Shown here piece by piece: positions 12,688 through 25,681 of a DNA stretch of 64,000 bases (position 1 is its first letter; the number at the start of each line of letters is the position of its first letter). Position numbers and translations under genes: made by a program. The notes under the pieces are model-generated. The model did no database searches. It was not told the DNA's origin and worked only from the letters and a program-made list of their open reading frames with translations. This DNA comes from a virus: positions 1 to 64,000 of IMG/VR virus record IMGVR_UViG_3300017991_000062, one strand, 5' to 3'.

Positions 12688-14139
12688 GTGACGGCGGCCT
12701 TGCCGGCAATCGAGATCACACCGGAGAACCGTGACGACGTAATCCGCGCCGCATCCGAGTTCCAGGGCCTCACCGATGAGATGATTCGCAGGGCCGTGCT
12801 GGTCGAGAGCCGGTTCGACATCCTCGCAACCGAGGTGCTCGAAATCGAGCTGGAAGAGGTCCACCTCGAACTGCTCGCGTACATGCTGGAGCAGGACGAG
12901 TCGCTGCACCTGGCGTTTCGAGGCTGCGGCAAGACGACCAGCGCTGTCGGCCCCTACGTCGTCGGCCGCATCCTTCAGGACCCCGAGCTGTGCGTACTCA
13001 TCGCGAGCCGGACCGGCACCTACGCCCAGACCATCATGCGACAGGTCAAGGGCCACCTGGTCAACGACAAGCTGGTCAGGATCTTCGGCGAGCAGAAAGA
13101 CCCGACGAAGTGGGAGGCCACCGAGTCCAACGTGCTCGGCAAAACGAAGAACACGAAGGAGGCCACGCTCACGGCGCTCGGTGCCGAGGGCAGCCTCACC
13201 GGCCGGCACTTTGACATCATCATCGTGGATGACCTGTGCGACCTGGAGAACACCAGGACCAGGGCACAGCGCAAGCGGATTCACGACTTCTACTACACCA
13301 CCCTCGACAACTGCCTCAAGCCTGGCGGCCAGCGCAAAGTCATCGGCACCCGCTACCATCCTCACGACCTGTACGGCTGGCTCTCGTCCAACGACCTCAA
13401 GGGTGCGGTGCAGATCGTGCCGGCCCTCCACGAGCATGAAGACGAGGACGGCGAGATCCGCTACGAGTCCAGCGCGCCTCGCAGGTTCACCGTCGAGTAC
13501 CTGCTGAAGAAGCGGGCCAAGACCCCGGCGCTCATCTGGCTGATGCAGATGCAGTGCATCGCCGCCCGGTTCCAGGGCAAGGTGTTCAAGCCCGAGTACT
13601 TCGAGGGTGAGGACTTCTACTTCACCGAGCTGCCCGAGGGTCAGCTCTACCAGGTGGTCGACCCGGCCGTGACCGAGAAGACGGAGAACGACTACTTCGC
13701 GCACATGACCGGCGTCGTGGACAGCGACGGGGATGTGTGGGTGGACAGCTACCACAACCTCCGCATCGAGTTCCCGAAGCAGGCGCCATTCTGCATCGAC
13801 GAGTTCGACGAGCGCGACCCGGTGCGGCTCGGCATCGAGAGCAACGCCTACCAGGCCGCGCTCGGCCAGGAGATCCTCGACAGGCGCCCAGACCTGAAGG
13901 GGCGCATTATCGGCGTCCAGACCGACAAGGACAAGGTCACCAGGGCGCTGAAATTGACTTCGTACTTTGAGGCGGGCAGAATCCACATGAGGCACGAACA
14001 CCGGGAGCTAGTCCAACAGCTTCTGGAGTTCCCTGACGGAGAGCACGATGACCTATTCGACGCCCTCGACTTGCTGGTGCGCATCGGAACCCGGATGAGG
14101 GTAAAGAAGAAGCGGCGCCGTGAGCCCGGCGTGATCTAG
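12688..14139 (+). CDS. terL: terminase large subunit
   Basis: Walker A FRGCGKT, Walker B IIVDD, GTRYH coupling motif, RNase H-like VVDPA...HDDLFDA. Confidence 0.93.
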   Translation: MTAALPAIEITPENRDDVIRAASEFQGLTDEMIRRAVLVESRFDILATEVLEIELEEVHLELLAYMLEQDESLHLAFRGCGKTTSAVGPYVVGRILQDPELCVLIASRTGTYAQTIMRQVKGHLVNDKLVRIFGEQKDPTKWEATESNVLGKTKNTKEATLTALGAEGSLTGRHFDIIIVDDLCDLENTRTRAQRKRIHDFYYTTLDNCLKPGGQRKVIGTRYHPHDLYGWLSSNDLKGAVQIVPALHEHEDEDGEIRYESSAPRRFTVEYLLKKRAKTPALIWLMQMQCIAARFQGKVFKPEYFEGEDFYFTELPEGQLYQVVDPAVTEKTENDYFAHMTGVVDSDGDVWVDSYHNLRIEFPKQAPFCIDEFDERDPVRLGIESNAYQAALGQEILDRRPDLKGRIIGVQTDKDKVTRALKLTSYFEAGRIHMRHEHRELVQQLLEFPDGEHDDLFDALDLLVRIGTRMRVKKKRRREPGVI

Positions 14140-14148
14140 GAGGAGAGC

Positions 14149-15978
14149 ATGGGCGACAAGGTAACTCGCATCCGGCGCCGGCCTGTCATTGGGTCGTCGA
14201 AGTCTTCCCCCAGTGACGCCTCGTCCAGCTCGGTCGTCAGCCTGACCAAGGGAGCCGGGCCGCGTGCGGTGGTGAAGGCTCTGGTCGTGGAGGCCGACGA
14301 GAAGAAGGTCGACGGGCCGATCTCCCAGGTGATGCCCGACGACCCCTTCCGCGACTTGGTTCACTCGAAGATGGTGCTCGCGCCGCCGCTCGACCCGCGG
14401 CTGCTCACGGTGCTGTGGGAGCAGAACAGCTACCTCGGGCCGTGCATCGCCACGATGGCGGTCAACTGCGAGAGCTTCGGTCACCAGTTCACCCCTCGCA
14501 TCCAGGTCAACGACGAGACGCCGAAGGCTGTGCTGGCCCGCATGGAGGAGGAGAAGCTCCTGCTCGACAACTGGTTCAACAACTGCGTCATCGAGGGCGA
14601 GGACAGCTTCACCGGCCTGCGCATGCGGAAGCGGCAGGACGAGGAGGGTGTCGGATACGCGGCCTGGGAGGTGGTTGAGTTCAACACCGAGGTTCTGGGC
14701 TTCAACTACGTTCCGGCCCACACCGTCCGCTGTACCGGCCTGGACAAGATGCGGGTGCGGGCCTCGCACAAGATGCTGATGCGCCACGAGGACGGGACCT
14801 ACCGCTACATCGAGCGTCCGGTGTGGAAGCGGTTCCGCAAGTTCGTCCAGGTCCGCGGCTCGAAGATGCGGTGGTTCAAGGAGTACGGCGATCCGCGCAC
14901 GATGAACGCCGAGACCGGTGAGTACGTCAGCGGGCCTGGCGCCATCTCGGCCTACAAGAGGGCGAACTCGATCCTCTTCTTTGTGCAAGCCGCGGCCCGC
15001 ACCCCCTACGGTATCCCGCGGTACATCGGCAGCCTGCTCGGCATCTACGGCAGCCGCGCCACCGACGAGATCAACTTCTTCACCTTCGAGTCGAACAACG
15101 TCCCGAGCATGGCGGTCACCGTGTCGAACGGTATGCTCTCGGACGGCAGCGTGGACCGCATTCAGCAGTTCGTGGAGAAGCAGGCTTCCGGCCAGCGCAA
15201 CTATTCCCGCTTCCTCATCCTGGAGGCCGAGCCGGCGACGGACGGCCTGGGCGACCCGGGCCGGGTCGCACTCGACATCCAGCCGCTCACGGACCAGCAA
15301 CGCACCGACGCGATGTTCCTGAAGTACAAAGAGCAGGCCAAGGCCGACGTCCGTGGCGCCTTCCGGCTGCCCGACGTGTTCTTCGGCGAGGCGCCCCAGG
15401 GCGGCGCGGTCGGCGCGATGGAGACGATGCGCAAGCTGACCGACGAGCAGGTGTTCCTCCCCGAGCGCAACACCTTCGATGACCGCATGAATCGCCGCAT
15501 CCTGCCGGCCCTCGGCGTGGTGTACTGGCAGTTCAAGTCGAACACCCCGGAGACGACCGATAACAAGGACCTCATCCGCATCCTCGCGATGGCCGAGAAG
15601 TCGGGCGGCGTGAGCCCGGCCATCGCTCGCGAGATCATGAGCCGCGTCGTCGGTCACGACCTGGGCAAGGTCAAGGGCATCGACCCGGAGGTGCCCTACA
15701 CGCTCCAGGTCGCCCAGGCGCAGAAAACGGGCGGCGACCCGATGTCCACTGCCTCCCAGGCGGGAACCAACTCCCTGCGTCGGATGGGGGCCACTACGCG
15801 GGCAGAACTGGGGCTGGAGGACACTGCGAAGGCTAGCGAGGTCGAGACACCCTGGGAGGGCGAGGCTGTGCTCGCCGGCCTGGGCACGCTGGTCGATAGG
15901 ATCTCGGAGGAGCAGGAGGGGCGCACGGCCAAGGCCAAGGAGGTCAAGCGCGAGCGGCCCACGGTGAGCGGCGAGTAG
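14149..15978 (+). CDS. portal protein (PBSX/XkdE-like)
   Basis: follows TerL; WFKEYGDPR, YGIPRYIG, FESNNVP, AFRLP motifs. Confidence 0.88.
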   Translation: MGDKVTRIRRRPVIGSSKSSPSDASSSSVVSLTKGAGPRAVVKALVVEADEKKVDGPISQVMPDDPFRDLVHSKMVLAPPLDPRLLTVLWEQNSYLGPCIATMAVNCESFGHQFTPRIQVNDETPKAVLARMEEEKLLLDNWFNNCVIEGEDSFTGLRMRKRQDEEGVGYAAWEVVEFNTEVLGFNYVPAHTVRCTGLDKMRVRASHKMLMRHEDGTYRYIERPVWKRFRKFVQVRGSKMRWFKEYGDPRTMNAETGEYVSGPGAISAYKRANSILFFVQAAARTPYGIPRYIGSLLGIYGSRATDEINFFTFESNNVPSMAVTVSNGMLSDGSVDRIQQFVEKQASGQRNYSRFLILEAEPATDGLGDPGRVALDIQPLTDQQRTDAMFLKYKEQAKADVRGAFRLPDVFFGEAPQGGAVGAMETMRKLTDEQVFLPERNTFDDRMNRRILPALGVVYWQFKSNTPETTDNKDLIRILAMAEKSGGVSPAIAREIMSRVVGHDLGKVKGIDPEVPYTLQVAQAQKTGGDPMSTASQAGTNSLRRMGATTRAELGLEDTAKASEVETPWEGEAVLAGLGTLVDRISEEQEGRTAKAKEVKRERPTVSGE

Positions 15979-15985
15979 GCGGGGG

Positions 15986-18900
15986 ATGGCGCTTCCTGTC
16001 CAGACTGACGCGGTGGGCGACCTGCTCCACCGCATGACCGACGAACAGCTCTTCGTCGCCAAGGCGCAGGCACGCGAGGCCCTGGTGCTGGCCAGGGTCA
16101 TCAAGGTGGCCGACGCCTACCTCGCGGTCGAGGAGGACCTGGGCAAGCTGCTCGTCGGCCACTGGGATGACAAGGGCGCCGCGCTGGTGAAGAAGGGAGC
16201 CTCCGAGCTGGCCAAGGCCCAGGAGGGGAAGATCGTCCAGTCGACGCTGTACGAGAACCTCCTGAAGCTGAAGAAGCAGATGGGCAAGGAGTTCGGTGAG
16301 GAGATGCTCCCCCACCTCATCCGATCCTCGCTGCTCGTTTGGTCGATGAGCAGCAAGGAGACGATGGGGCGGCTCCAGCTCAAGTGGTCGACCGACCTGG
16401 TGGACAAGAAGGCTGCGGCGCAGCTCTCGAAGCATCACGCGTACTGGATCGGGAACCACTACAACACCTCCATCTCGGAGTCGCTGCGCCTGGCGACGAA
16501 AGAGGTCATCCTCGACGGCGGGCTGGCCGGCACACAGGCGGCCAAGGCGTACCGCGACATCACGACCGAGTACCTCGCAGGCAAGGGGAAGAAGTACCCC
16601 GGCGTTCCGCCCGGCTTCAAGGGCACGACCGACGACTACTTCGCAGGGGTGTCGAACCACGTCGGGACGCAGGCTAGGGTCTTCAGCCGGATGGAGTCGT
16701 ACCAGCGTGTCGGGATCACGACCTACCGGATCGTCGCGGTGCTGGACAACCGGACGAGCGATGTGTGCCGGATGATGCACGGCCAGACGTTCACCGTCGA
16801 GCAGGGCATGAAGACTGCCGGGGTGTGGACCCAGGGCATCGTCCACCCCGAGGTCGTGAAGAAGCAGGCCGGCTGGATGCGGCCGGCCGACATCGCGAAG
16901 ACGGCTGGCATCGCCTACACCCCGGGGGCTACCTCGCCGAAGATGAGCGCGAAGGGGATCGACGCGCTGGCCGAGAAGGGGCAGGCTCTCCCGCCCTATC
17001 ACTTCCGCTGCCGCACCGACGTCATCAGCTCGGGTGAGTACACCAGCTTCCCCACCGGGAGCGAGCCCAAGACCAAGCCCGTCAAGCCTCCGAAGAAGGA
17101 CCCGCCGAAGCCTCCCCCGGCTGCTCCGACCCCACCCGCGAAAGCGCCAGGCGCTTTCCCGTGGGCGATGACCGACATGACCCCCGTGCAGAAGTCTGCG
17201 AAGGGGATGCACTCGAAGCAGTTCTTCACCGACCCGAACGGCGATGAGTGGATGTTCAAGCCGGCACCGGAGGGGCTCAAGTTCCGCGCCGAGGTGGAGA
17301 AGCTCGCCGCCGATGCGGCCAGGGCTATTGGGGTTGACACGGCCGACGTCTATGTGGTGTCGCACAGGGGCAAGGCTGGCACCATCCAGCGGCTCTTCAA
17401 GGACGTGAAGCACGACGGCCTCGGCAACGTGGGCGTCAACGGCTTGTCGCAGAAGCAGGTCGCCGACCTCCAGCGGCAGCACGTCCTCGACTGGCTCATC
17501 GGGAATAACGACGGCCACCTCGACAACTTCCTGGTCCTGAAGAATGGCAAGCTGGTCGGCATCGACCGAGGGCAGGCGTTCCGATACTTCAAGACGGACA
17601 AGCTCGCCCTGGACTACAACCCGAACGCGAAGTACGGCATTGAGGTCTTCTACAACCGCTTCTTCGCCGCGGCCCGCGACGGCAAGCTACGCAAGGGTGT
17701 CCAGATGCTCGGCATGGACAGCCCCGAGATCCAAGCGCTGCTGAAGCAGGTGGGCAGCGTGAGCGACGACGAGTGGCTTGCCATCTGGAAGCCGTACATC
17801 GACGGCGCCCTGAAGAACCAGCGGCTCGCATACGGCAGCCGCAAGGCGTTCGAGGCCGAGTTGCTGCGGCGGAAGAACGAGCTGGCCGGCGACCTCGGTG
17901 AGTTCTACCGGAAGATTCTGGGCGAGGCTGCCAAGCCTGCGCCCAGGGTGTCGGCCCCGGCCGCGGCCCAGGGCAAGGCCATGACGCCGGTCGACGCGAA
18001 GTTCGTCAAAGCGATGCGCGACTCGAAGAACCGCGGCCGGTCGATCCTGGTGTCCACCGAGCGCGTCGAGAATGGCAACCTGCTCGTTTACACCTACGAC
18101 GACGGGACGGTGGTGGTCGAAGGCAAGCTGCGCGCTGGTGTCGGCGACCGGACAGCGCAGAAGCGGCTCCTCGGTTCGGAAGCCAAGGCCAAGGCGCCAC
18201 CCCCGTCCACCCCGGGCTCCGGGACCGATGGGTACTGGGACGAGGCCCTCACCTACATCAAGCATGTCAACTACCACCTCGGGCCGGGTGGCGACGGTGT
18301 CTTGAGCGGTGCCAAGAACAAGAGCTTCGAGGCGTTCATGGAGCTGCTCGAAGACATCTCCAAGAGCAAGACGGCTACCAGCGCGGAGAAGGCCGCGGCG
18401 AGGTATTACAAGAAGAAGCTCAAAATCTACGGCGACGAGAATGGCGGCTTCTTCACCGAGGAGAAGCTCAAGTCGACGGCCGTGGGGAAGAAGATCGATC
18501 CCTACAAGCCGAAGCCGAAGGCGACCAAGCCCAAGCCGAAAGCGGCGCCAGGCGAGAGCAACGGGATGAGCCCGCGGGTCAAGTCCTCGAAGGTGACCCA
18601 GATGGGCGAGGAGTCCCGGGAGATTGTCGACGGAAGCATCGTCAACCACCACGGCACCATGTCGCCGAGTGCATACGGCGGGAGCCGCGAGATCGACCGG
18701 ATGATCGTGGCCACCCTCGACGACGGCACCGAAATCACCTACATCCCACACGACGGGTACAAACAGGGGCAGGCGTACTCGCGGCAGGGCCGCTTCAGGA
18801 TCAAGGTGAGGGGGAAGGCCGGGAAGCCGGCCAGCAAGGAGCAGGTCGAGCAGGCCGTGGCCGCGCTGGACGACTTGGGCGTCAACACCCGGCTGATGAC

Positions 18901-19687
18901 GAAGCAGGACTTCGAGCTGCTCTACCTACGCAAGAATCAGTTCGCGATGGGGTGGGGCAACGACCAGGTGTTCGCAGGCGTCCCGACGACCGGCGACAAG
19001 GCCGAGCAGATCGAGGCGATGGTCAAGGCGTTCAAGAAGAAGCTCGGCCGCGACCCCCGCAAGATGCCGGGGTACAACCCGAACCCTCACTACTATAGCA
19101 GCGACGGCAACGGCATCGTCCGCTTCCAGCGGTTCGACATCTCGGATGCCGACCTTAAGAAGGCCAACCTCCAATTCGTCTCCGAGGTAACCGGCAGCGA
19201 GGACGCAGCATCGCTCTTGCTCAAGGTCATCGACGGCGAGACCGGCGGCCTCATCGCGACCGAGGAGAAGATCCGGCGCGGCATCCCGATCTCCGGGATG
19301 TCGCCTGTCGCTGACCAGTCGACCGGCGGTGCGCAGTTCGTGTTCACCAGGGCGCGGCGCAAGGCGAGGGTCAGTGGCCGGAACCGAATCGTGATGAGGA
19401 ACGACCTCGCACGCGACACGAACCTGGTGTCTTACAACGGTGACAAGTACGGTCGCATGGACTCGGCATTCAAGGAGCGCAACCGGGCCAAGGATCTGAA
19501 GGGCATCGAGGGACATATCGCGCGCCACGACAACGAGACGCTCTTCAAAAACGAGGTGCCCCTGGAGCAGTGGGACCACATCACCGTTTCGGCCGCGCAG
19601 AAAAAGACTCTGCTCGCAGAGCTGAAGGCGCGTGGTGTCACGCGCATCGCTGGCAAGCCGGTCAACCAGTTCGTACAGGCGAGGTGA
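15986..19687 (+). CDS. MuF (SPP1 gp7-like) minor head protein with kinase-like and additional C-terminal domains
   Basis: MuF: AVLDNRTSDVCRMMHG...PPYHFRCR; kinase: WMFKP...E...DWLIGNNDGHLDN...IDRG. Confidence 0.85.
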   Translation: MALPVQTDAVGDLLHRMTDEQLFVAKAQAREALVLARVIKVADAYLAVEEDLGKLLVGHWDDKGAALVKKGASELAKAQEGKIVQSTLYENLLKLKKQMGKEFGEEMLPHLIRSSLLVWSMSSKETMGRLQLKWSTDLVDKKAAAQLSKHHAYWIGNHYNTSISESLRLATKEVILDGGLAGTQAAKAYRDITTEYLAGKGKKYPGVPPGFKGTTDDYFAGVSNHVGTQARVFSRMESYQRVGITTYRIVAVLDNRTSDVCRMMHGQTFTVEQGMKTAGVWTQGIVHPEVVKKQAGWMRPADIAKTAGIAYTPGATSPKMSAKGIDALAEKGQALPPYHFRCRTDVISSGEYTSFPTGSEPKTKPVKPPKKDPPKPPPAAPTPPAKAPGAFPWAMTDMTPVQKSAKGMHSKQFFTDPNGDEWMFKPAPEGLKFRAEVEKLAADAARAIGVDTADVYVVSHRGKAGTIQRLFKDVKHDGLGNVGVNGLSQKQVADLQRQHVLDWLIGNNDGHLDNFLVLKNGKLVGIDRGQAFRYFKTDKLALDYNPNAKYGIEVFYNRFFAAARDGKLRKGVQMLGMDSPEIQALLKQVGSVSDDEWLAIWKPYIDGALKNQRLAYGSRKAFEAELLRRKNELAGDLGEFYRKILGEAAKPAPRVSAPAAAQGKAMTPVDAKFVKAMRDSKNRGRSILVSTERVENGNLLVYTYDDGTVVVEGKLRAGVGDRTAQKRLLGSEAKAKAPPPSTPGSGTDGYWDEALTYIKHVNYHLGPGGDGVLSGAKNKSFEAFMELLEDISKSKTATSAEKAAARYYKKKLKIYGDENGGFFTEEKLKSTAVGKKIDPYKPKPKATKPKPKAAPGESNGMSPRVKSSKVTQMGEESREIVDGSIVNHHGTMSPSAYGGSREIDRMIVATLDDGTEITYIPHDGYKQGQAYSRQGRFRIKVRGKAGKPASKEQVEQAVAALDDLGVNTRLMTKQDFELLYLRKNQFAMGWGNDQVFAGVPTTGDKAEQIEAMVKAFKKKLGRDPRKMPGYNPNPHYYSSDGNGIVRFQRFDISDADLKKANLQFVSEVTGSEDAASLLLKVIDGETGGLIATEEKIRRGIPISGMSPVADQSTGGAQFVFTRARRKARVSGRNRIVMRNDLARDTNLVSYNGDKYGRMDSAFKERNRAKDLKGIEGHIARHDNETLFKNEVPLEQWDHITVSAAQKKTLLAELKARGVTRIAGKPVNQFVQAR

Positions 19688-19690
19688 GGG

Positions 19691-20119
19691 GTGGGGAGCT
19701 ACACGAGCCGCGGTCGCAAGGTGAAGCCGGATACGGCAGCCGAGCACTTCGAGGAGCTGATGGGCCGCTTCGGTGGCATCATGGTCGAGCCGTTCTACGT
19801 GGGCGACGACGGCACCGAGCAGCCTATCACCGGCCCGACACCCTCGGCGTGGGCCAAGCTCGATCCCGGGCTGAAGCGCCTCGGGTGGTCGTGGGGTTCC
19901 AGCGCTCACCGGGTCGATTGGTTCGAGGCCAGGGTGGACGACGGCGACCTCCTGCTCATCGGCCCGAGCGACAACGAGGGCGAGCGATTGACTGGGGTGC
20001 TCATCTCGGGCATCCTCTTCGACGACGACCAGGCCATCCTGAAGCGGGGGAAGCGGCAGCTCGGGGAAGTGGGGCAAGCCAAGGCCGAGGCCCAGGTCGA
20101 CGAGGTGATGCGTGGCTAG
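19691..20119 (+). CDS. hypothetical protein (candidate MuF immunity/partner)
   Basis: directly downstream of muF; acidic. Confidence 0.5.
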   Translation: MGSYTSRGRKVKPDTAAEHFEELMGRFGGIMVEPFYVGDDGTEQPITGPTPSAWAKLDPGLKRLGWSWGSSAHRVDWFEARVDDGDLLLIGPSDNEGERLTGVLISGILFDDDQAILKRGKRQLGEVGQAKAEAQVDEVMRG

Positions 20120-20471: not shown

Positions 20472-20656
20472 GCGAGCGACACCCATCACGGCCGGACCCG
20501 ATGCCCGAGCTGGAAGAGCTGTACCTCGCTGGTCGGCTGACCGAGGCGCAGTTCCAGAAGCGACTCCTTGCCGAGCACACCCTCGAAGGCGCCGACCGGC
20601 TGCGGAAGCGGTGGGCTGCTCGCAAGGCCACCCTGGACAAGGAGGCCCAGTCGTGA
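20468..20656 (+). CDS. small hypothetical protein
   Basis: 4-nt overlaps on both sides. Confidence 0.5.
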   Translation: MSERHPSRPDPMPELEELYLAGRLTEAQFQKRLLAEHTLEGADRLRKRWAARKATLDKEAQS

Positions 20657-21285
20657 AGATCAAGGATGTGAAACCCGCGGTGCTGCGCGAGGTGTCGGAC
20701 AAGGAGCTGCTTTCCCTGCACCTGCGCACTCACCAGCTCTACGGCGCGAACTTCGGGCCGGACGCACCTGCCGGCCGCGGCTACAAGGACGACAAGGGTG
20801 TCGACGCAGTGGATGGGCTGCGGCTCTCCGACGACGGCGCCCTCGCCATCTGGAAGGGCGCTGCGAAGGTGGTGCGGCTGCGCGAGCGCCTGGGCAACTT
20901 CGGGCGGCCGTTCTTCCTCCTGTCGCCGAGCTATGCCTACGGCATCATCCGGCTCGGCAAGCCGCGCAAGGACAGCAACGACTATCCGGTCGAGTACTTC
21001 CGCGGTTTCAAGGTGCCCCTGAAGTACGAGGCGACGGGCGACGGCACCATCCCGCAGAAGGTGGCCATCGTGGGCGAGGAGAAGATGAGCCTGGAGGACC
21101 TGGTTCACGCCCACCTGTTCATCAAGGAGGAGATGGAGCGGCGCAAGCTCGACCACAACCGGGTGAGCGAGCTGGACGACGAGAAGCTGCCCACGGCCAA
21201 GGCCGCCGAGGTGCTCCTGGACCGCGAGCTGACATTCTGGGCTGCCGGTGAGGAAGGCGAGGTGCTCGATGTGGACAGTGCGTAA
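20653..21285 (+). CDS. His-containing helical domain with inserted ASCH/PUA-like segment (putative)
   Basis: SDKELLSLHLRTHQL...HAHLFIKEEMERRKLDH flanking GLRL..ALAIWKG...YGIIRLGKP...FKVPLKY. Confidence 0.5.
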   Translation: MKIKDVKPAVLREVSDKELLSLHLRTHQLYGANFGPDAPAGRGYKDDKGVDAVDGLRLSDDGALAIWKGAAKVVRLRERLGNFGRPFFLLSPSYAYGIIRLGKPRKDSNDYPVEYFRGFKVPLKYEATGDGTIPQKVAIVGEEKMSLEDLVHAHLFIKEEMERRKLDHNRVSELDDEKLPTAKAAEVLLDRELTFWAAGEEGEVLDVDSA

Positions 21286-21649
21286 GGTTGTCGAGTTCGA
21301 TTCCGCTCACCACCTGCCGGACCACCCCGGGAAGTGCAAGCGCCTCCACGGCCATCGCTGGAAGGTCGTGATTGAGGTGGCCGCGGCCGAGCTGGACGGC
21401 GAGGGCATGGTCTGCGACTTCGGCGAGCTGGGCCGCCCCGTCAAGGAGCTGGACCACGCCTACCTCAACGACGTACCCCCATTTGACACGACCCCTCCCA
21501 CGGCCGAGAACCTCGCGAAGTGGGTGGTCGACCAGGTGCGTCCGCTGGTGCCGAACGCCTGCCGGGTGATGGCCACCGTGAGCGAGACGCCGGGCAACGA
21601 TGCCTCGTTCCTGTGGGTGCGCGACTTCTGCGAAGCTGGCCTGCCGTGA
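21269..21649 (+). CDS. queD: 6-carboxytetrahydropterin synthase
   Basis: FDSAHHL, CKRLHGH, DFGEL, LDHAYLND, PTAENLA, SETP. Confidence 0.95.
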   Translation: MWTVRKVVEFDSAHHLPDHPGKCKRLHGHRWKVVIEVAAAELDGEGMVCDFGELGRPVKELDHAYLNDVPPFDTTPPTAENLAKWVVDQVRPLVPNACRVMATVSETPGNDASFLWVRDFCEAGLP

Positions 21650-22254
21650 CCCGGGGCAAGCTCTACCAAGTGGCCGACTGCTTCTACTCGCTCCAGGGCG
21701 AGGGCGGCCGGGCCGGCGCGCCGTCTGTCTTCCTGCGCTTCGCGGGGTGTAACCTGCACTGCACGAAGGCGACGGCCGGCTTCGACTGCGATACCGACCA
21801 TCAGGCGAACCTGCTCCTGCCCCTGGGCGGTGTGGTGCAGGTGGTCAAGGTGGCCGACCTGGGCGACTGCGGGTGGGTGGTGCTGACCGGTGGCGAGCCC
21901 GCGCTTCAGCTCGACACCGAGCTGGTCGAGGCACTCCACGGAGCCGGCTATCGCCTGGCGGTGGAGTCCAACGGCACCCTCTCCCTTCCTGACGGCATCG
22001 ACTGGGTGACGGTGTCGCCCAAGCGAGGCTCGGGGCCGCTCGCCGCCCGCAACGCGACCGAGGTCAAGGTGGTGATGCAGGCCGGCGACCCGCTGCCCGA
22101 GTGCGACATCGAAGCTGACTACTACTACTTGAGCCCGGCCCACGATGGCGACCAGATCGACCAGGCCGCGCTCGATCACTGCGTTCGGCTGTGCCTTGAG
22201 AACCCGAGGTGGAAGCTCTCGACGCAGCAACACAAGGCATGGAGGATCAAATGA
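21646..22254 (+). CDS. queE: 7-carboxy-7-deazaguanine synthase (radical SAM)
   Basis: [19 protein letters not shown]...[26 protein letters not shown]. Confidence 0.95.
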
Positions 22255-22828: not shown

Positions 22829-25681
22829 ATGGGCTACGGCGTGAAGGACTTCCACTACTACTTCGCGGTCGACCGAGCCGACTACCGCAAGTTCGGGCAC
22901 CTGCTCCAGGGTGGCGACATTCTGGTCAGCTACGTGTACCTCCGAGAGGCGGCCGACAAGAAAGGCGAGTTCCTCGCGGACGTGAAGGCCCACAAGGGCC
23001 GGGTGATGCTGGACAGCGGCGGCTTCACCAACTTCTTCACGCCTGGCAGCGTCAAGTTCAAAGACTGGGCCGACTTCGTGAAGTCGAACCAGAGCTGGCT
23101 CGATGAGGTGGTGCAGTTCGACGACCTCAAGAGCAGGCGCAAGACGCTCGACTTCTACGACGAGGCCATCAAGCTCGGGCTCGACCCGCTGTTCGTGGAC
23201 CACCTGCGCTTCCACACCGAGAAGGATCGGGCCGGGAAAATCTGGAAGGCCAAGCCCAAGGTCTGCATCGCCGGCTTCGGCAAGGCCAAGCCCGACCAGG
23301 ACAAGAAGAGCCCGGTGTATGACGCGAAGCGGCTGCACGAGGCGTTCGTGCAGGGCCGCGAGGTGAAGACCGTCGTGCACATGCTCGGCGTCGGCAGCAT
23401 CAAGAAGTTCCTCCCGTGGCTCGACGTCATCCACAGCGTCGACTCGGCGAGCTGGGACAAGGCTGCGGCGTTCGGGAAGGTGCTGGTGCTCCAGGCGGAG
23501 GATCTGGGCGACGGTATCAAGATCCCGATCCTGAAGAACTACACCTACCCCGGCAACCCGCGGCGCACCGACCACCCGATCCCGCGCGAGCAGATGGACG
23601 CCGACTGGAACGGGCCGGTGAAGCGGCTCAAGCTCGACAAGTGGTCGGTCACGCAGCGGGCCAAGGGCGTCACCATCTACCACATGAAGCGCTATGTGGA
23701 GGCGGTGCGCAAGCTCGACCCGGTGAAGCTGACGAAGCAGCTCGAAGAGCTGCGCGCGGCCAAGGCCGAGGCGGGCTCGACCAGTTACTTCTTCCTCGGT
23801 GACGACTTCTGGTACGAGCCCGACCCGACGCCCGTGGCCAAGGACGACGGCGAGCAGCTCGACCGCGGCGAGGTCATGGGCCACCTGGAGCAGGCCGGTT
23901 CCTTCGTGGTGGTGCCCGGCTTTGTGTCGCTGGTCGGTTCGACGCTGACAGGCCAGGACGGTGACCCGGCCAAGGACGTCGACCTGCTCGTTCGCGCTGA
24001 CGAGGTGGACCCCAAGGTGGCGGTGAAGCTGGAGCGCCTGTTCCCGCCCGAGATGCAGGGCAAGGTCCACGTCGTCGGCGATGCCCAGGGCCCGAACTGG
24101 AAGCACCTGCCACTCTACGACCTGGTCGCCCGCAAGCGGGAGAAGCTGGTCGCAGTGGAGGTCGATGAGCCCGACTACCAACCCTTCCCGACGCAGCCTG
24201 GCGCTGGACGCCCGAACCTGACCAAGGTGGTGAAGCAGGGCACCGACCTCGACCCTGCCGAAACCGAGCTGACCCGGGAGGAGGCGCGCGAGCTGACGGA
24301 GGCGGTGCAGGGCGACCCCTACCAGGTGGAGCAGAAGGGGAAGCGGAAGTACCGCTTCGTCCTTCAGCACCACTACCGCGGCTTCTGGAGCGAGGACGAG
24401 CGGAAGCAGATCCGGTCGATGCTGCGTCAGGCCCAGGCCGCGGCCAAGGCCGGCGACACGAAGAAGGCCGAGGGGCTGCTCAATGGGGTGTGGTCCGACT
24501 TCAAGCCGGTGCGCCTCAAGTCCGACATCGACGCGGTGAAGACCGCTGCCCAGGCTGCCGAGGATGCGAGCGACGGCAACGTCGGCGCGGCCGTGCGGCG
24601 CAATCTGACCTCCGACGTTCCCGGGCTGGACAAGCTGGCCGGTGTCGAGGGCAGCATCGTCAACCTCGGCAACGTCCACACCGACCTGCGGATGGAGAGT
24701 CCGGCCGGTAAGTGGCTCGTTGGCTGGACGCTGGACACCCCCAAGGTCGCGCTCCAGACGCTCGACGGCAAGGCGCACAACCTGCTCCGCTGCAAGGTGA
24801 TGGACAACCGCGAGGGCGACAACATCGTCGCGCAGCGCAAGCTCGTCCAGCCGGTGTCGTGGCTCACCATCGTCAGCAAGGAGAAGCCCGTCGTGACGAC
24901 GGCGCCAGGCGAGGCCGGCTCGACTGCCGGCACCACTGGTGAGTTCCACTACGTCGACTCGGGCGAGGTCATCTTCGGCGTGCAGAAGACCGACTTCCAC
25001 GAGTACTTCCTCTTCCCCAAGTCGGGCAAGTGGGGCGGCCGGTGGGGCATCCAGATCGTGGAGGGGAAGCCCGACTATGAGAAGGCGCCCGGCGAGTTCT
25101 GGATGGCCAACCGGCCCGCGAAGACGCAGGAGCCGTACATCCAGACCCACGACCGGAAGAAGGAGGAGGCCAAGGCCAAGGAGGACGGGGTCGACGTGGT
25201 GTGGAACCCCGACACCGTGCCTGCGCTGCGGGCTGCCGGCTACAAGCCGCTCAAGGACGAGGTGAAGAAGGACGCGGACGACGTGGTGCGCGTCGCCCTC
25301 CAGGTTCCCATCGCGAAGGTTGCCAAGGAAGAGCGATACGTCATGGGAATCGTGATGGTCCCGGAGGCCACCGACGCCCACGGCGAGAAGGCCACGGCCA
25401 AGGAGATCCGGGAGGCCGCTCACAAATTTCTTGTCAGCGGAGCGAAGATCGGGTATCAACATCAAGAGATCCCAGGTGGCCTAGTACTGCTGGAGAGTTA
25501 CCTTGCCCCGGTCGAATTCAAGCTCGGTAACAAGACCATCCCGAAGGGGACGTGGCTCATGGCCGTGCGGGTCAATAACGATGAGGTCTGGAAAGAGGTC
25601 AAGGCCGGACGCATCACTGGGTTCAGCATCGAGGGCTACGCGAAGAAGGTCCCGCTGAAGCCGAAGCCGAAGGAGAGCTGA
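22829..25681 (+). CDS. polyprotein: TGT/DpdA-like transglycosylase + Pol-beta nucleotidyltransferase + LigD-type 3'-phosphoesterase + XkdF-like prohead protease
   Basis: VMLDSGGF / VHMLG / SVDSASW (aa ~1-297); VSLVGS...KDVDLLVR (aa ~343-445); FVLQHH...HTDLRME...GWTL (aa ~508-775); GIVMVP..DAHGE...H...ESYLAP...GTWL...GFSIEG (aa ~834-950). Confidence 0.8.
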   Translation: MGYGVKDFHYYFAVDRADYRKFGHLLQGGDILVSYVYLREAADKKGEFLADVKAHKGRVMLDSGGFTNFFTPGSVKFKDWADFVKSNQSWLDEVVQFDDLKSRRKTLDFYDEAIKLGLDPLFVDHLRFHTEKDRAGKIWKAKPKVCIAGFGKAKPDQDKKSPVYDAKRLHEAFVQGREVKTVVHMLGVGSIKKFLPWLDVIHSVDSASWDKAAAFGKVLVLQAEDLGDGIKIPILKNYTYPGNPRRTDHPIPREQMDADWNGPVKRLKLDKWSVTQRAKGVTIYHMKRYVEAVRKLDPVKLTKQLEELRAAKAEAGSTSYFFLGDDFWYEPDPTPVAKDDGEQLDRGEVMGHLEQAGSFVVVPGFVSLVGSTLTGQDGDPAKDVDLLVRADEVDPKVAVKLERLFPPEMQGKVHVVGDAQGPNWKHLPLYDLVARKREKLVAVEVDEPDYQPFPTQPGAGRPNLTKVVKQGTDLDPAETELTREEARELTEAVQGDPYQVEQKGKRKYRFVLQHHYRGFWSEDERKQIRSMLRQAQAAAKAGDTKKAEGLLNGVWSDFKPVRLKSDIDAVKTAAQAAEDASDGNVGAAVRRNLTSDVPGLDKLAGVEGSIVNLGNVHTDLRMESPAGKWLVGWTLDTPKVALQTLDGKAHNLLRCKVMDNREGDNIVAQRKLVQPVSWLTIVSKEKPVVTTAPGEAGSTAGTTGEFHYVDSGEVIFGVQKTDFHEYFLFPKSGKWGGRWGIQIVEGKPDYEKAPGEFWMANRPAKTQEPYIQTHDRKKEEAKAKEDGVDVVWNPDTVPALRAAGYKPLKDEVKKDADDVVRVALQVPIAKVAKEERYVMGIVMVPEATDAHGEKATAKEIREAAHKFLVSGAKIGYQHQEIPGGLVLLESYLAPVEFKLGNKTIPKGTWLMAVRVNNDEVWKEVKAGRITGFSIEGYAKKVPLKPKPKES

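Follow-up and report, generated by a model that had tools for sequence, protein, structure and literature searches.

What would a phage head protein do with a kinase-like domain, and what follows that domain in its long C-terminal half? The question is raised by the gene at positions 15,986-19,687 of IMG/VR record IMGVR_UViG_3300017991_000062, a 113,077-bp uncultured virus rated complete by CheckV, of which the first 64 kb (64,000 nucleotides, nt) form the stretch analyzed here (hereafter the window). The gene encodes P0001, a protein of 1233 amino acids (aa). Phages are thought to inject enzymes together with their DNA and thereby to take over the cell during the opening seconds of infection, and few such injected enzymes have been studied, phage T4 Alt being the main example. 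We propose that P0001 is probably a polyvalent minor head protein, i.e., a capsid-loaded, injected effector comprising two enzymes, namely a predicted atypical kinase and a putative DarT-like ADP-ribosyltransferase (ART) placed behind an N-terminal MuF domain. The P0001 segments and the two genes upstream, delineated using open reading frame (ORF) calls, hidden Markov models (HMMs), and structural models rated by the predicted local distance difference test (pLDDT), are as follows:

12688..14139, + strand: large terminase subunit (PHROG 38, E 1.6e-67; Pfam Terminase_6C, E 2.2e-6)
14149..15978, + strand: portal protein (PHROG 12, E 2.7e-21; Pfam Phage_portal, E 7.3e-7)
15986..19687, + strand: MuF-kinase-ART-like head protein P0001, 1233 aa, ATG start (ORF call)
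16343..17035, + strand: MuF (SPP1 gp7-like) domain, aa ~120-350, last motif PPYHFRCR (Pfam, TIGR01641, PHROGs)
17036..17179 (approximate), + strand: Pro/Lys-rich linker, aa ~351-398 (sequence reading)
17180..17923, + strand: predicted atypical kinase (PI4KII/CtkA/HipA-like), aa ~399-646 (AlphaFold model, Foldseek, VIA, conservation)
17255-17263, + strand: FKP motif, aa 424-426, containing the beta3 lysine K425 (nt 17258-17260)
17510-17527, + strand: DGHLDN catalytic loop, aa 509-514 (D509, H511, N514)
17561-17572, + strand: IDRG motif, aa 526-529, equivalent to DFG, with the metal-binding D527 (nt 17564-17566)
17978..18190, + strand: small beta-rich domain, aa ~665-735 (model pLDDT 86-93)
18218..18490, + strand: helical bundle, aa ~745-835 (helices at model positions 89-171)
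18491-18571, + strand: Lys/Pro linker after the helical bundle, aa ~836-862
18578..19120, + strand: conserved beta-plus-helical domain, aa ~865-1045 (model, HMM)
19136..19684, + strand: predicted DarT-like ART-fold domain, aa ~1051-1233 (VIA, Foldseek, conservation)

The MuF gene begins 8 nt after the end of the portal gene, and the terminase, portal, and MuF genes follow one another on the + strand in the classic packaging order. The MuF region is matched by head-morphogenesis and minor-head PHROGs 241, 115, 2841, and 9907 (E 6e-11 to 3e-8), and 14 of the 15 homologs aligned over this region score above the MuF cut-off (best E 4.6e-20). Full-length homologs (P0002-P0006) are 61-26% identical to P0001, and the length of the Pro/Lys linker differs between homologs. 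A preliminary description made from the DNA letters had proposed a 1233-aa MuF protein at this position, with the MuF domain ending near 17030 and a Pro/Lys linker leading to a kinase; all of this holds, since the frame opens with ATG downstream of the terminase and portal genes, the PPYHFRCR motif stops at ~nt 17023, and the linker occupies aa ~351-398. The same description left residues 660-1233 aside and regarded the kinase as the C-terminal effector of a MuF protein. The kinase indeed sits on a MuF protein, but among roughly six segments it comes second, and the actual C-terminal domain is DarT-like: P0001 runs from MuF through the Pro/Lys linker, kinase, beta-rich domain, helical bundle, second linker, and beta-plus-helical domain to the ART-like end.

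Fold and catalytic residues of the predicted kinase

The AlphaFold model of the kinase region, built on 31 homologous sequences, reached a pLDDT of 94.4 and a predicted template modeling score (pTM) of 0.90 and displays a bilobal kinase fold over aa ~399-646. Foldseek ranked PI4KIIalpha first (E 1.6e-6), followed by CtkA and Vps34, all at E ~1e-6. In a VIA search, independent of Foldseek, the model superposed on PI4KIIalpha (4pla) with a Z score of 16.0 and a root mean square deviation (rmsd) of 3.6 A over 233 residues, with lower Z scores for CtkA (13.5), Fam20 (12.3), actin-fragmin kinase (11.6), MavQ (11.5), and HipA (10.0-10.6); CotH was also among the structural matches. The superposition on PI4KIIalpha includes a helical C-lobe of ~100 aa. 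The kinase fold that the preliminary description had predicted (PI3K/HipA-like) was therefore recovered by structure prediction and Foldseek, and the FKP lysine, the helix-C glutamate (E438), DGHLDN, and IDRG all lie at the positions it had given.

The full catalytic set expected of a kinase, i.e., beta3 lysine, alphaC acidic residue, catalytic aspartate, asparagine, and metal-binding aspartate, is present and was followed over 161 homologous kinase domains. The catalytic D509 and the metal-binding D527 are retained in 161/161 domains and K425 in 160/161, while the catalytic-loop positions are occupied by His or Lys (H511, 159/161) and by Asn or Gln (N514, 155/161), and the acidic alphaC position of E438 by Asp or Glu in 127. 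Glutamine at position 468, within the final N-lobe strand, is found in 150 of these domains. Past the DFG equivalent, the family possesses a signature of its own (Q530, D538, P546-N547, and Y556-N557).

Profile searches give this domain sub-threshold scores. Pfam HipA_C (PF07804) matched aa 404-467 alone (E 1.1e-6; 28.8 bits against a cut-off of 30.5), and PI3_PI4_kinase (PF00454) matched only 38 residues (E 5.1e-5; 23.7 bits against a cut-off of 27.1); in place of the DRHxxN and DFG motifs of the latter, P0001 has D-G-H-L-D-N and D-R-G, with Arg and Phe not kept. Comparison of the whole P0001 sequence with Protein Data Bank (PDB) chains returned only an alignment to the Vps34 catalytic loop at E 0.27, and the family profile found nothing useful in the PDB. 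A toxin-antitoxin kinase of the HipA type was ruled out, with no HipA_N match, no hipB, and head genes as neighbors. Based on the model and the conserved residues, we assign aa ~399-646 to the PI3/4K-HipA-CtkA branch, as an atypical kinase that looks intact.

The kinase is a member of a large family for which Pfam has no entry. When residues 385-660 were compared with 1.84 billion representative proteins, 1366 clusters passed E<=1e-3 and 141 passed E<=1e-30; almost all consist of proteins 500-7700 aa long. In two samplings of the family, 20 of 40 and 14 of 15 members carried MuF. The longer relatives P0010-P0018 (1300-2140 aa) contain SAP or Rho_N DNA-binding motifs inserted between MuF and the kinase, and one of them a NUDIX domain at this place; mycobacteriophages, such as McProf, Onyinye, and Phrappuccino, also carry the kinase. 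In the closer subclade, to which the scan of genome contigs by closer alignment is confined, the carriers are assigned to Chloroflexota, Desulfobacterota, Gammaproteobacteria, Armatimonadota, Acidobacteriota, Hydrogenedentota, Nitrospirota, Pontiellaceae, Myxococcales, Calditrichota, and Actinomycetota.

The C-terminal half and its inheritance with the kinase

Residues 661-1233 were modeled as one piece (pLDDT 81, pTM 0.72); residues 660-1233 had no Pfam, NCBIfam, or PHROG match. In this model, the small beta domain spans aa ~685-735, the helical bundle, set off by a linker, aa ~749-831, and the beta-plus-helical domain, past the Lys/Pro linker, aa ~865-1020, with an alpha/beta domain at the end (aa ~1051-1233). 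The small beta-rich domain always stands after the kinase and has conserved G684, E695, K714, and R716. Fold searches with the helical bundle returned generic helical matches only. The beta-plus-helical domain co-occurs with the C-terminal domain in most relatives, as judged by HMMs, and may extend the ART-like domain on its N-terminal side; the structural match to SopF covers model positions 326-573. For the C-terminal domain itself, a VIA search of 48,161 representative chains gave the following matches, the top four of which are all DarT:

DarT1, 8baq: Z 8.9, 152 residues, rmsd 3.0 A
DarT2, 7omv: Z 8.3, 150 residues, rmsd 3.3 A
DarTG, 7omu: Z 7.8, 147 residues, rmsd 3.7 A
DarTG, 7yk3: Z 7.7, 149 residues, rmsd 3.8 A
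Tpt1 (ART fold): Z 6.6, 107 residues, rmsd 3.8 A
SopF (ART fold): Z 6.4, 152 residues, rmsd 4.3 A

Foldseek also retrieved DarT entries, at a probability of 0.91-0.98 with E-values >0.01. The best matches in the viral structure library BFVD were small proteins of giant viruses, an iridovirus, and baculoviruses, which may correspond to the DarT-related ORF28 family of arthropod viruses (PMC9503650), while a search of the ESM Atlas yielded only unnamed clusters, with low recognition. Across 99 homologs of the C-terminal domain, G1099, S1106, D1110, G1114, D1153, and E1184 are invariant (98-99/99 for S1106, D1110, D1153, and E1184), and E1184 (nt 19535-19537) is the candidate catalytic glutamate. 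With moderate confidence, and on the strength of the modeled fold, we regard the C-terminal domain as a divergent ART-fold enzyme that most resembles DarT.

The stretch from the kinase to the ART-like domain is one conserved, jointly inherited unit. According to domain HMMs, 94 of 161 proteins with the kinase have the C-terminal domain after it, and at least 157 stretches in IMG/VR encode relatives; all 80 of these that were listed match P0001, mostly continuously, from ~aa 358-407 to ~aa 1221-1233. Species-representative genomes contributed relatives on 88 further contigs, from bacteria or metagenome-assembled genomes (MAGs), in about a dozen phyla. Some relatives stop at ~aa 764. Four separate relatives of the kinase module (L097, L118, L138, and L140) occur in the 9.1-Mb Bryobacterales MAG OZ252029.1, two of them ending at ~aa 764 and consisting of the kinase and small beta domain only; this MAG also holds a true DarT (L167, E 1.5e-64).

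The two domains also occur in other combinations. In McProf gp54 and Onyinye gp16, both from mycobacteriophages, and in the 485-residue P0159, the kinase is paired with an unrelated ART of the C3/VIP2 type (ADPrib_exo_Tox), and the MuF protein of Pseudanabaena phage Pan1 has the C-terminal domain without the kinase. Since the kinase pairs with two different types of ART, the two activities probably serve one process. Our literature searches turned up no publication in which a PI4KII/HipA-like kinase and a DarT-like domain are combined on a MuF protein.

Small downstream genes and genome setting

Two small genes, here called A and B, follow the P0001 gene directly, and other genes lie farther downstream:

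19691..20119, + strand: gene A, 142 aa, starting 4 nt past the P0001 stop codon
20112..20471, + strand: gene B, 119 aa, overlapping gene A by 8 nt
20611-21285, + strand: 224-aa ORF between the small downstream genes and queD (position only)
21520-22254: QueE-like radical SAM gene
22829-25681, + strand: 950-aa DpdA-like/protease fusion (PHROG 887, Pfam PF14550)
91306-92064 of the genome, outside the window, + strand: ADP-ribosylglycohydrolase (ARH-type; PF03747, 26.5 bits)

Gene A has counterparts with 36-42% identity at the same position in L005-L007, and in L010-L012, L039, and L040 the next gene downstream is matched to it by hhalign (probability 92.5%). Its membership in a 159-aa family found immediately downstream in 53 other loci was unsupported (hhalign probability 5.9%). 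Gene B has BLASTP matches in L005-L012, and hhalign related it (86%, E 4.8e-6) to a gene of ~118 aa, offset by ~+440 nt, that comes second downstream in 57 other loci. In the closest relatives, both genes are kept at matching positions; gene B is conserved throughout the wider family, and gene A belongs to a smaller one. In L008 (3659-4420) and L009 (9311-10060), two more distant relatives, the gene immediately downstream encodes ~250 aa, with its C-terminal half matching gene B, and may be a fusion of genes A and B. Both genes can be considered candidate partners of P0001 (inhibitor, immunity protein, or chaperone), which is a guess by analogy; an inhibitor or immunity role is a reasonable one because the MuF-ART toxin Bxa is neutralized by two downstream proteins (PMC11699363).

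The ADP-ribosylglycohydrolase, encoded ~72 kb from the P0001 gene, is the only enzyme removing ADP-ribose found in this phage and could reverse either the phage's own ART-like activity or that of a host. Across the whole genome, no Macro or NADAR domain was matched, and no antitoxin of the DarG type adjoins the ART-like domain. The 224-aa ORF, for which no Pfam or PHROG match was obtained, occupies the spot where a scaffolding protein might be expected. In the 950-aa protein, an N-terminus resembling queuine-tRNA-ribosyltransferase/DpdA (PHROG 887, E 6e-12) is joined to a C-terminal XkdF-type prohead protease (Pfam PF14550, E 1e-30), and several enzymes seem to be tied to the capsid in this phage.

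The source genome has a GC content of ~66%. The 113,077-bp record begins and ends with the same 14 bases, an overlap too short to prove a circular assembly, and IMG/VR classifies the record as linear. A megablast search with the 20 kb around the MuF-kinase gene found no match among 50,697 phage records. A crude 4-mer comparison of the first 28 residues of P0001 with all ORF starts gave no convincing common N-terminal helix.

Possible function and comparison with known systems

We propose that P0001 would act as follows. Homology and gene order suggest that the MuF domain positions P0001 at the portal, within the capsid, while the head is being assembled, with at least two enzyme domains strung behind it on flexible Pro/Lys linkers. 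At infection, P0001 would leave the capsid together with the DNA, as suggested by published MuF fusions, T4 Alt, and polyvalent proteins. In the host, the kinase would phosphorylate its target using ATP and the C-terminal DarT-like domain would ADP-ribosylate its target using NAD+, both probably acting on the same process, either host takeover or the disabling of defense. Genes A and B would be candidates for silencing the enzymes in the producing cell or for aiding their loading. The combination expected of a polyvalent protein, i.e., a kinase and an ART-like domain on a MuF protein encoded beside the portal and terminase genes, is found here.

Several observations weigh against this proposal. 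In P0001 itself, the MuF domain scores below threshold in Pfam (Phage_Mu_F, PF04233, aa 228-346, 22.2 bits against a cut-off of 29.6) and just below it for TIGR01641 (SPP1 gp7; 38.3 bits against 39.65). The nearest solved structure to the kinase is that of a lipid kinase, PI4KIIalpha. The resemblance to DarT is one of predicted fold only, with middling Z scores; PF14487 (DarT) had no match in this genome at E<=1 and none in 15 homologs, and hhalign against 13 PF14487-matching sequences from bacterial genomes gave a weak result (probability 6.9%, P 0.005), whose sole local alignment, as weak, placed E1184 and the next strand on the DarT catalytic glutamate of 'AEFLV' and the strand after it. 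Position 1066, probably the first residue of the ART motif, is His in 72 of the 99 C-terminal homologs, as in the ortholog P0002, and Ser in P0001, whose ART-like domain could thus be weakened. Genes A and B match no Pfam or PHROG family, and we infer packaging, ejection, and both enzyme activities alike.

Other roles can be envisaged for the same arrangement. P0001 could be a MuF polymorphic toxin as understood by Jamet et al. (2017), which is released from a lysing or producing cell and poisons competitors, genes A and B then encoding immunity proteins. The layout speaks for this, with MuF at the N-terminus, enzymatic domains toward the C-terminus, and small genes lacking annotation right downstream; MuF toxins have been described (PMC5576092), the ART toxin Bxa has two immunity proteins (PMC11699363), and related modules are found on bacterial chromosomes, probably in prophages. 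We nevertheless consider this unlikely: the C-terminal module is conserved rather than polymorphic, being the same in at least 157 loci from viruses and 88 from genomes, gene B is conserved and does not co-vary, the source phage, a 113-kb element, carries replication genes of its own, and, as judged by Pfam and PHROG, neither small gene resembles a known ADP-ribosyl hydrolase. SPP1 gp7-type proteins have roles in structure and ejection, and the extra domains of P0001 might likewise serve only in structure or assembly, as spacers or in DNA condensation or ejection control, with the enzyme folds as relics devoid of catalysis. The long helical and linker segments, the DNA-binding SAP and Rho_N motifs of relatives, and the Ser at position 1066 are compatible with such a role, which we nonetheless find hardly credible, because catalytic residues of both domains that are invariant or nearly so across sequences only 25-40% identical form the pattern of active enzymes. 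Among readings that retain both activities, kinase and ART could be two halves of one reaction with Tpt1-like chemistry, in which a phosphate is added and then capped or converted with ADP-ribose taken from NAD+. The kinase would phosphorylate a host nucleic-acid end, a base, or a protein, and the two-step modification delivered from the capsid would block host replication or a defense nuclease, while the phage would be spared by its own 7-deazaguanine-modified DNA and by the ARH hydrolase. This would explain why the kinase and ART are inherited as a unit; we regard it as quite improbable.

The kinase might also be a true lipid kinase, similar to PI4K, which phosphorylates a membrane lipid of the host where the DNA enters the cell. 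The structural ranking (Z 16.0 for PI4KIIalpha, 13.5 for the best protein kinase), weak Pfam matches of family members to PI3_PI4_kinase and LepB_N, and the match to the Legionella lipid kinase MavQ all speak for it, whereas the same structural list contains the protein kinases CtkA, Fam20, actin-fragmin kinase, HipA, and CotH, and the conserved segment with D538, P546-N547, and Y556-N557, as far as it can be read from sequence, is unlike the activation loops of PI kinases. Phosphatidylinositol is rare among bacteria, and to our knowledge most of the carrier phyla are not known to produce it; with carriers in about a dozen bacterial phyla, a phosphoinositide is an unlikely substrate. The putative substrate-binding segment is highly conserved across carriers with varied hosts, which favors a universal target. 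Thus, we favor, with some reservation, a conserved protein or another universal molecule as the substrate, see a phosphoinositide as distinctly the less probable choice, and leave a smaller remainder to neither; action as a lipid kinase at the entry site seems rather doubtful to us. The proposal that P0001 is a polyvalent, injected two-enzyme effector is the one we continue with.

The strategy itself is already known, and the enzyme pair is unstudied. The kinase and ART-like module is among the commonest uncharacterized cargoes; its kinase family by itself comprises more than 1300 clusters, in phages and prophages of about a dozen phyla. Its targets, once found, would reveal a widespread step of early takeover or anti-defense and would extend the PI4K/HipA kinase group by a branch from bacterial viruses and possibly yield a new target of ADP-ribosylation. 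The P0001 gene, lying in a complete genome, is a clean case, with domain borders in place and candidate catalytic residues that could be mutated.

Among the known systems, T4 Alt, a head-carried ART that modifies host proteins upon entry, and T7 gp0.7, a phage kinase whose substrates are transcription and translation factors of the host (both summarized in PMC5512222), are functional precedents only, without demonstrated homology. T4 Alt is loaded by a capsid-targeting sequence and not by MuF, and T7 gp0.7 is made after infection and not packaged. DarT1 and DarT2 (PMC11543638, PMC5179494) resemble P0001 in the predicted ART fold, and the invariant glutamate of P0001, at the start of a late strand, aligns weakly with the catalytic one of DarT; in contrast, the conserved P0001 motifs GMSP-x2-D-x3-GGA, F-T-R, and Y-x2-D-x2-G differ from those of DarT, and no DarG, macro, or NADAR partner lies beside the P0001 gene. 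With PI4KII, CtkA, and HipA, the predicted kinase has in common the fold, the catalytic loop D-x-H-x-x-N, and the metal-binding aspartate in I-D-[KR]-G, but it is only 12-18% identical to them, lacks the HipA N-terminal domain, HipB, and the accessory domains of lipid kinases, and is embedded in a phage head protein.

The MuF polymorphic toxins (PMC5576092), including the Bxa-Bsi-BAH system (PMC11699363), resemble P0001 in their MuF N-terminus and enzymatic C-terminus, which is an ART in Bxa, and Bxa also has small genes directly downstream (two immunity genes). They differ in having one variable toxin domain, whereas the P0001 module is conserved, multidomain, and includes a kinase; the word 'kinase' is absent from the text of PMC5576092. 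Packaged and injected effectors fused to MuF, together with polyvalent proteins, are a published concept (Iyer, Burroughs, Anand, de Souza and Aravind, 2017, PMC5512222; PMC3482391; Iyer et al., 2022, PMC9503650). The polyvalent-protein kinase was described as a Ser/Thr/Tyr-kinase derivative without the whole C-terminal subdomain, found mainly in elements of Verrucomicrobia-Chlamydia and Bacteroidetes (PMC5512222). Compared by description, the P0001 kinase differs in retaining a helical C-lobe of ~100 aa and in its occurrence in many other phyla, and it is similar in the conserved glutamine of the last N-lobe strand (Q468). As in P0001, polyvalent proteins are large and multidomain, are encoded among head-packaging genes, have a MuF anchor, and combine several enzyme domains, including ARTs and a kinase, with packaging and injection predicted. 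Because the kinase is located on a MuF protein in the terminase-portal-MuF order, the proposed role of P0001 as virion cargo agrees with what has been published about polyvalent proteins and effectors fused to MuF (PMC5512222, PMC9503650).

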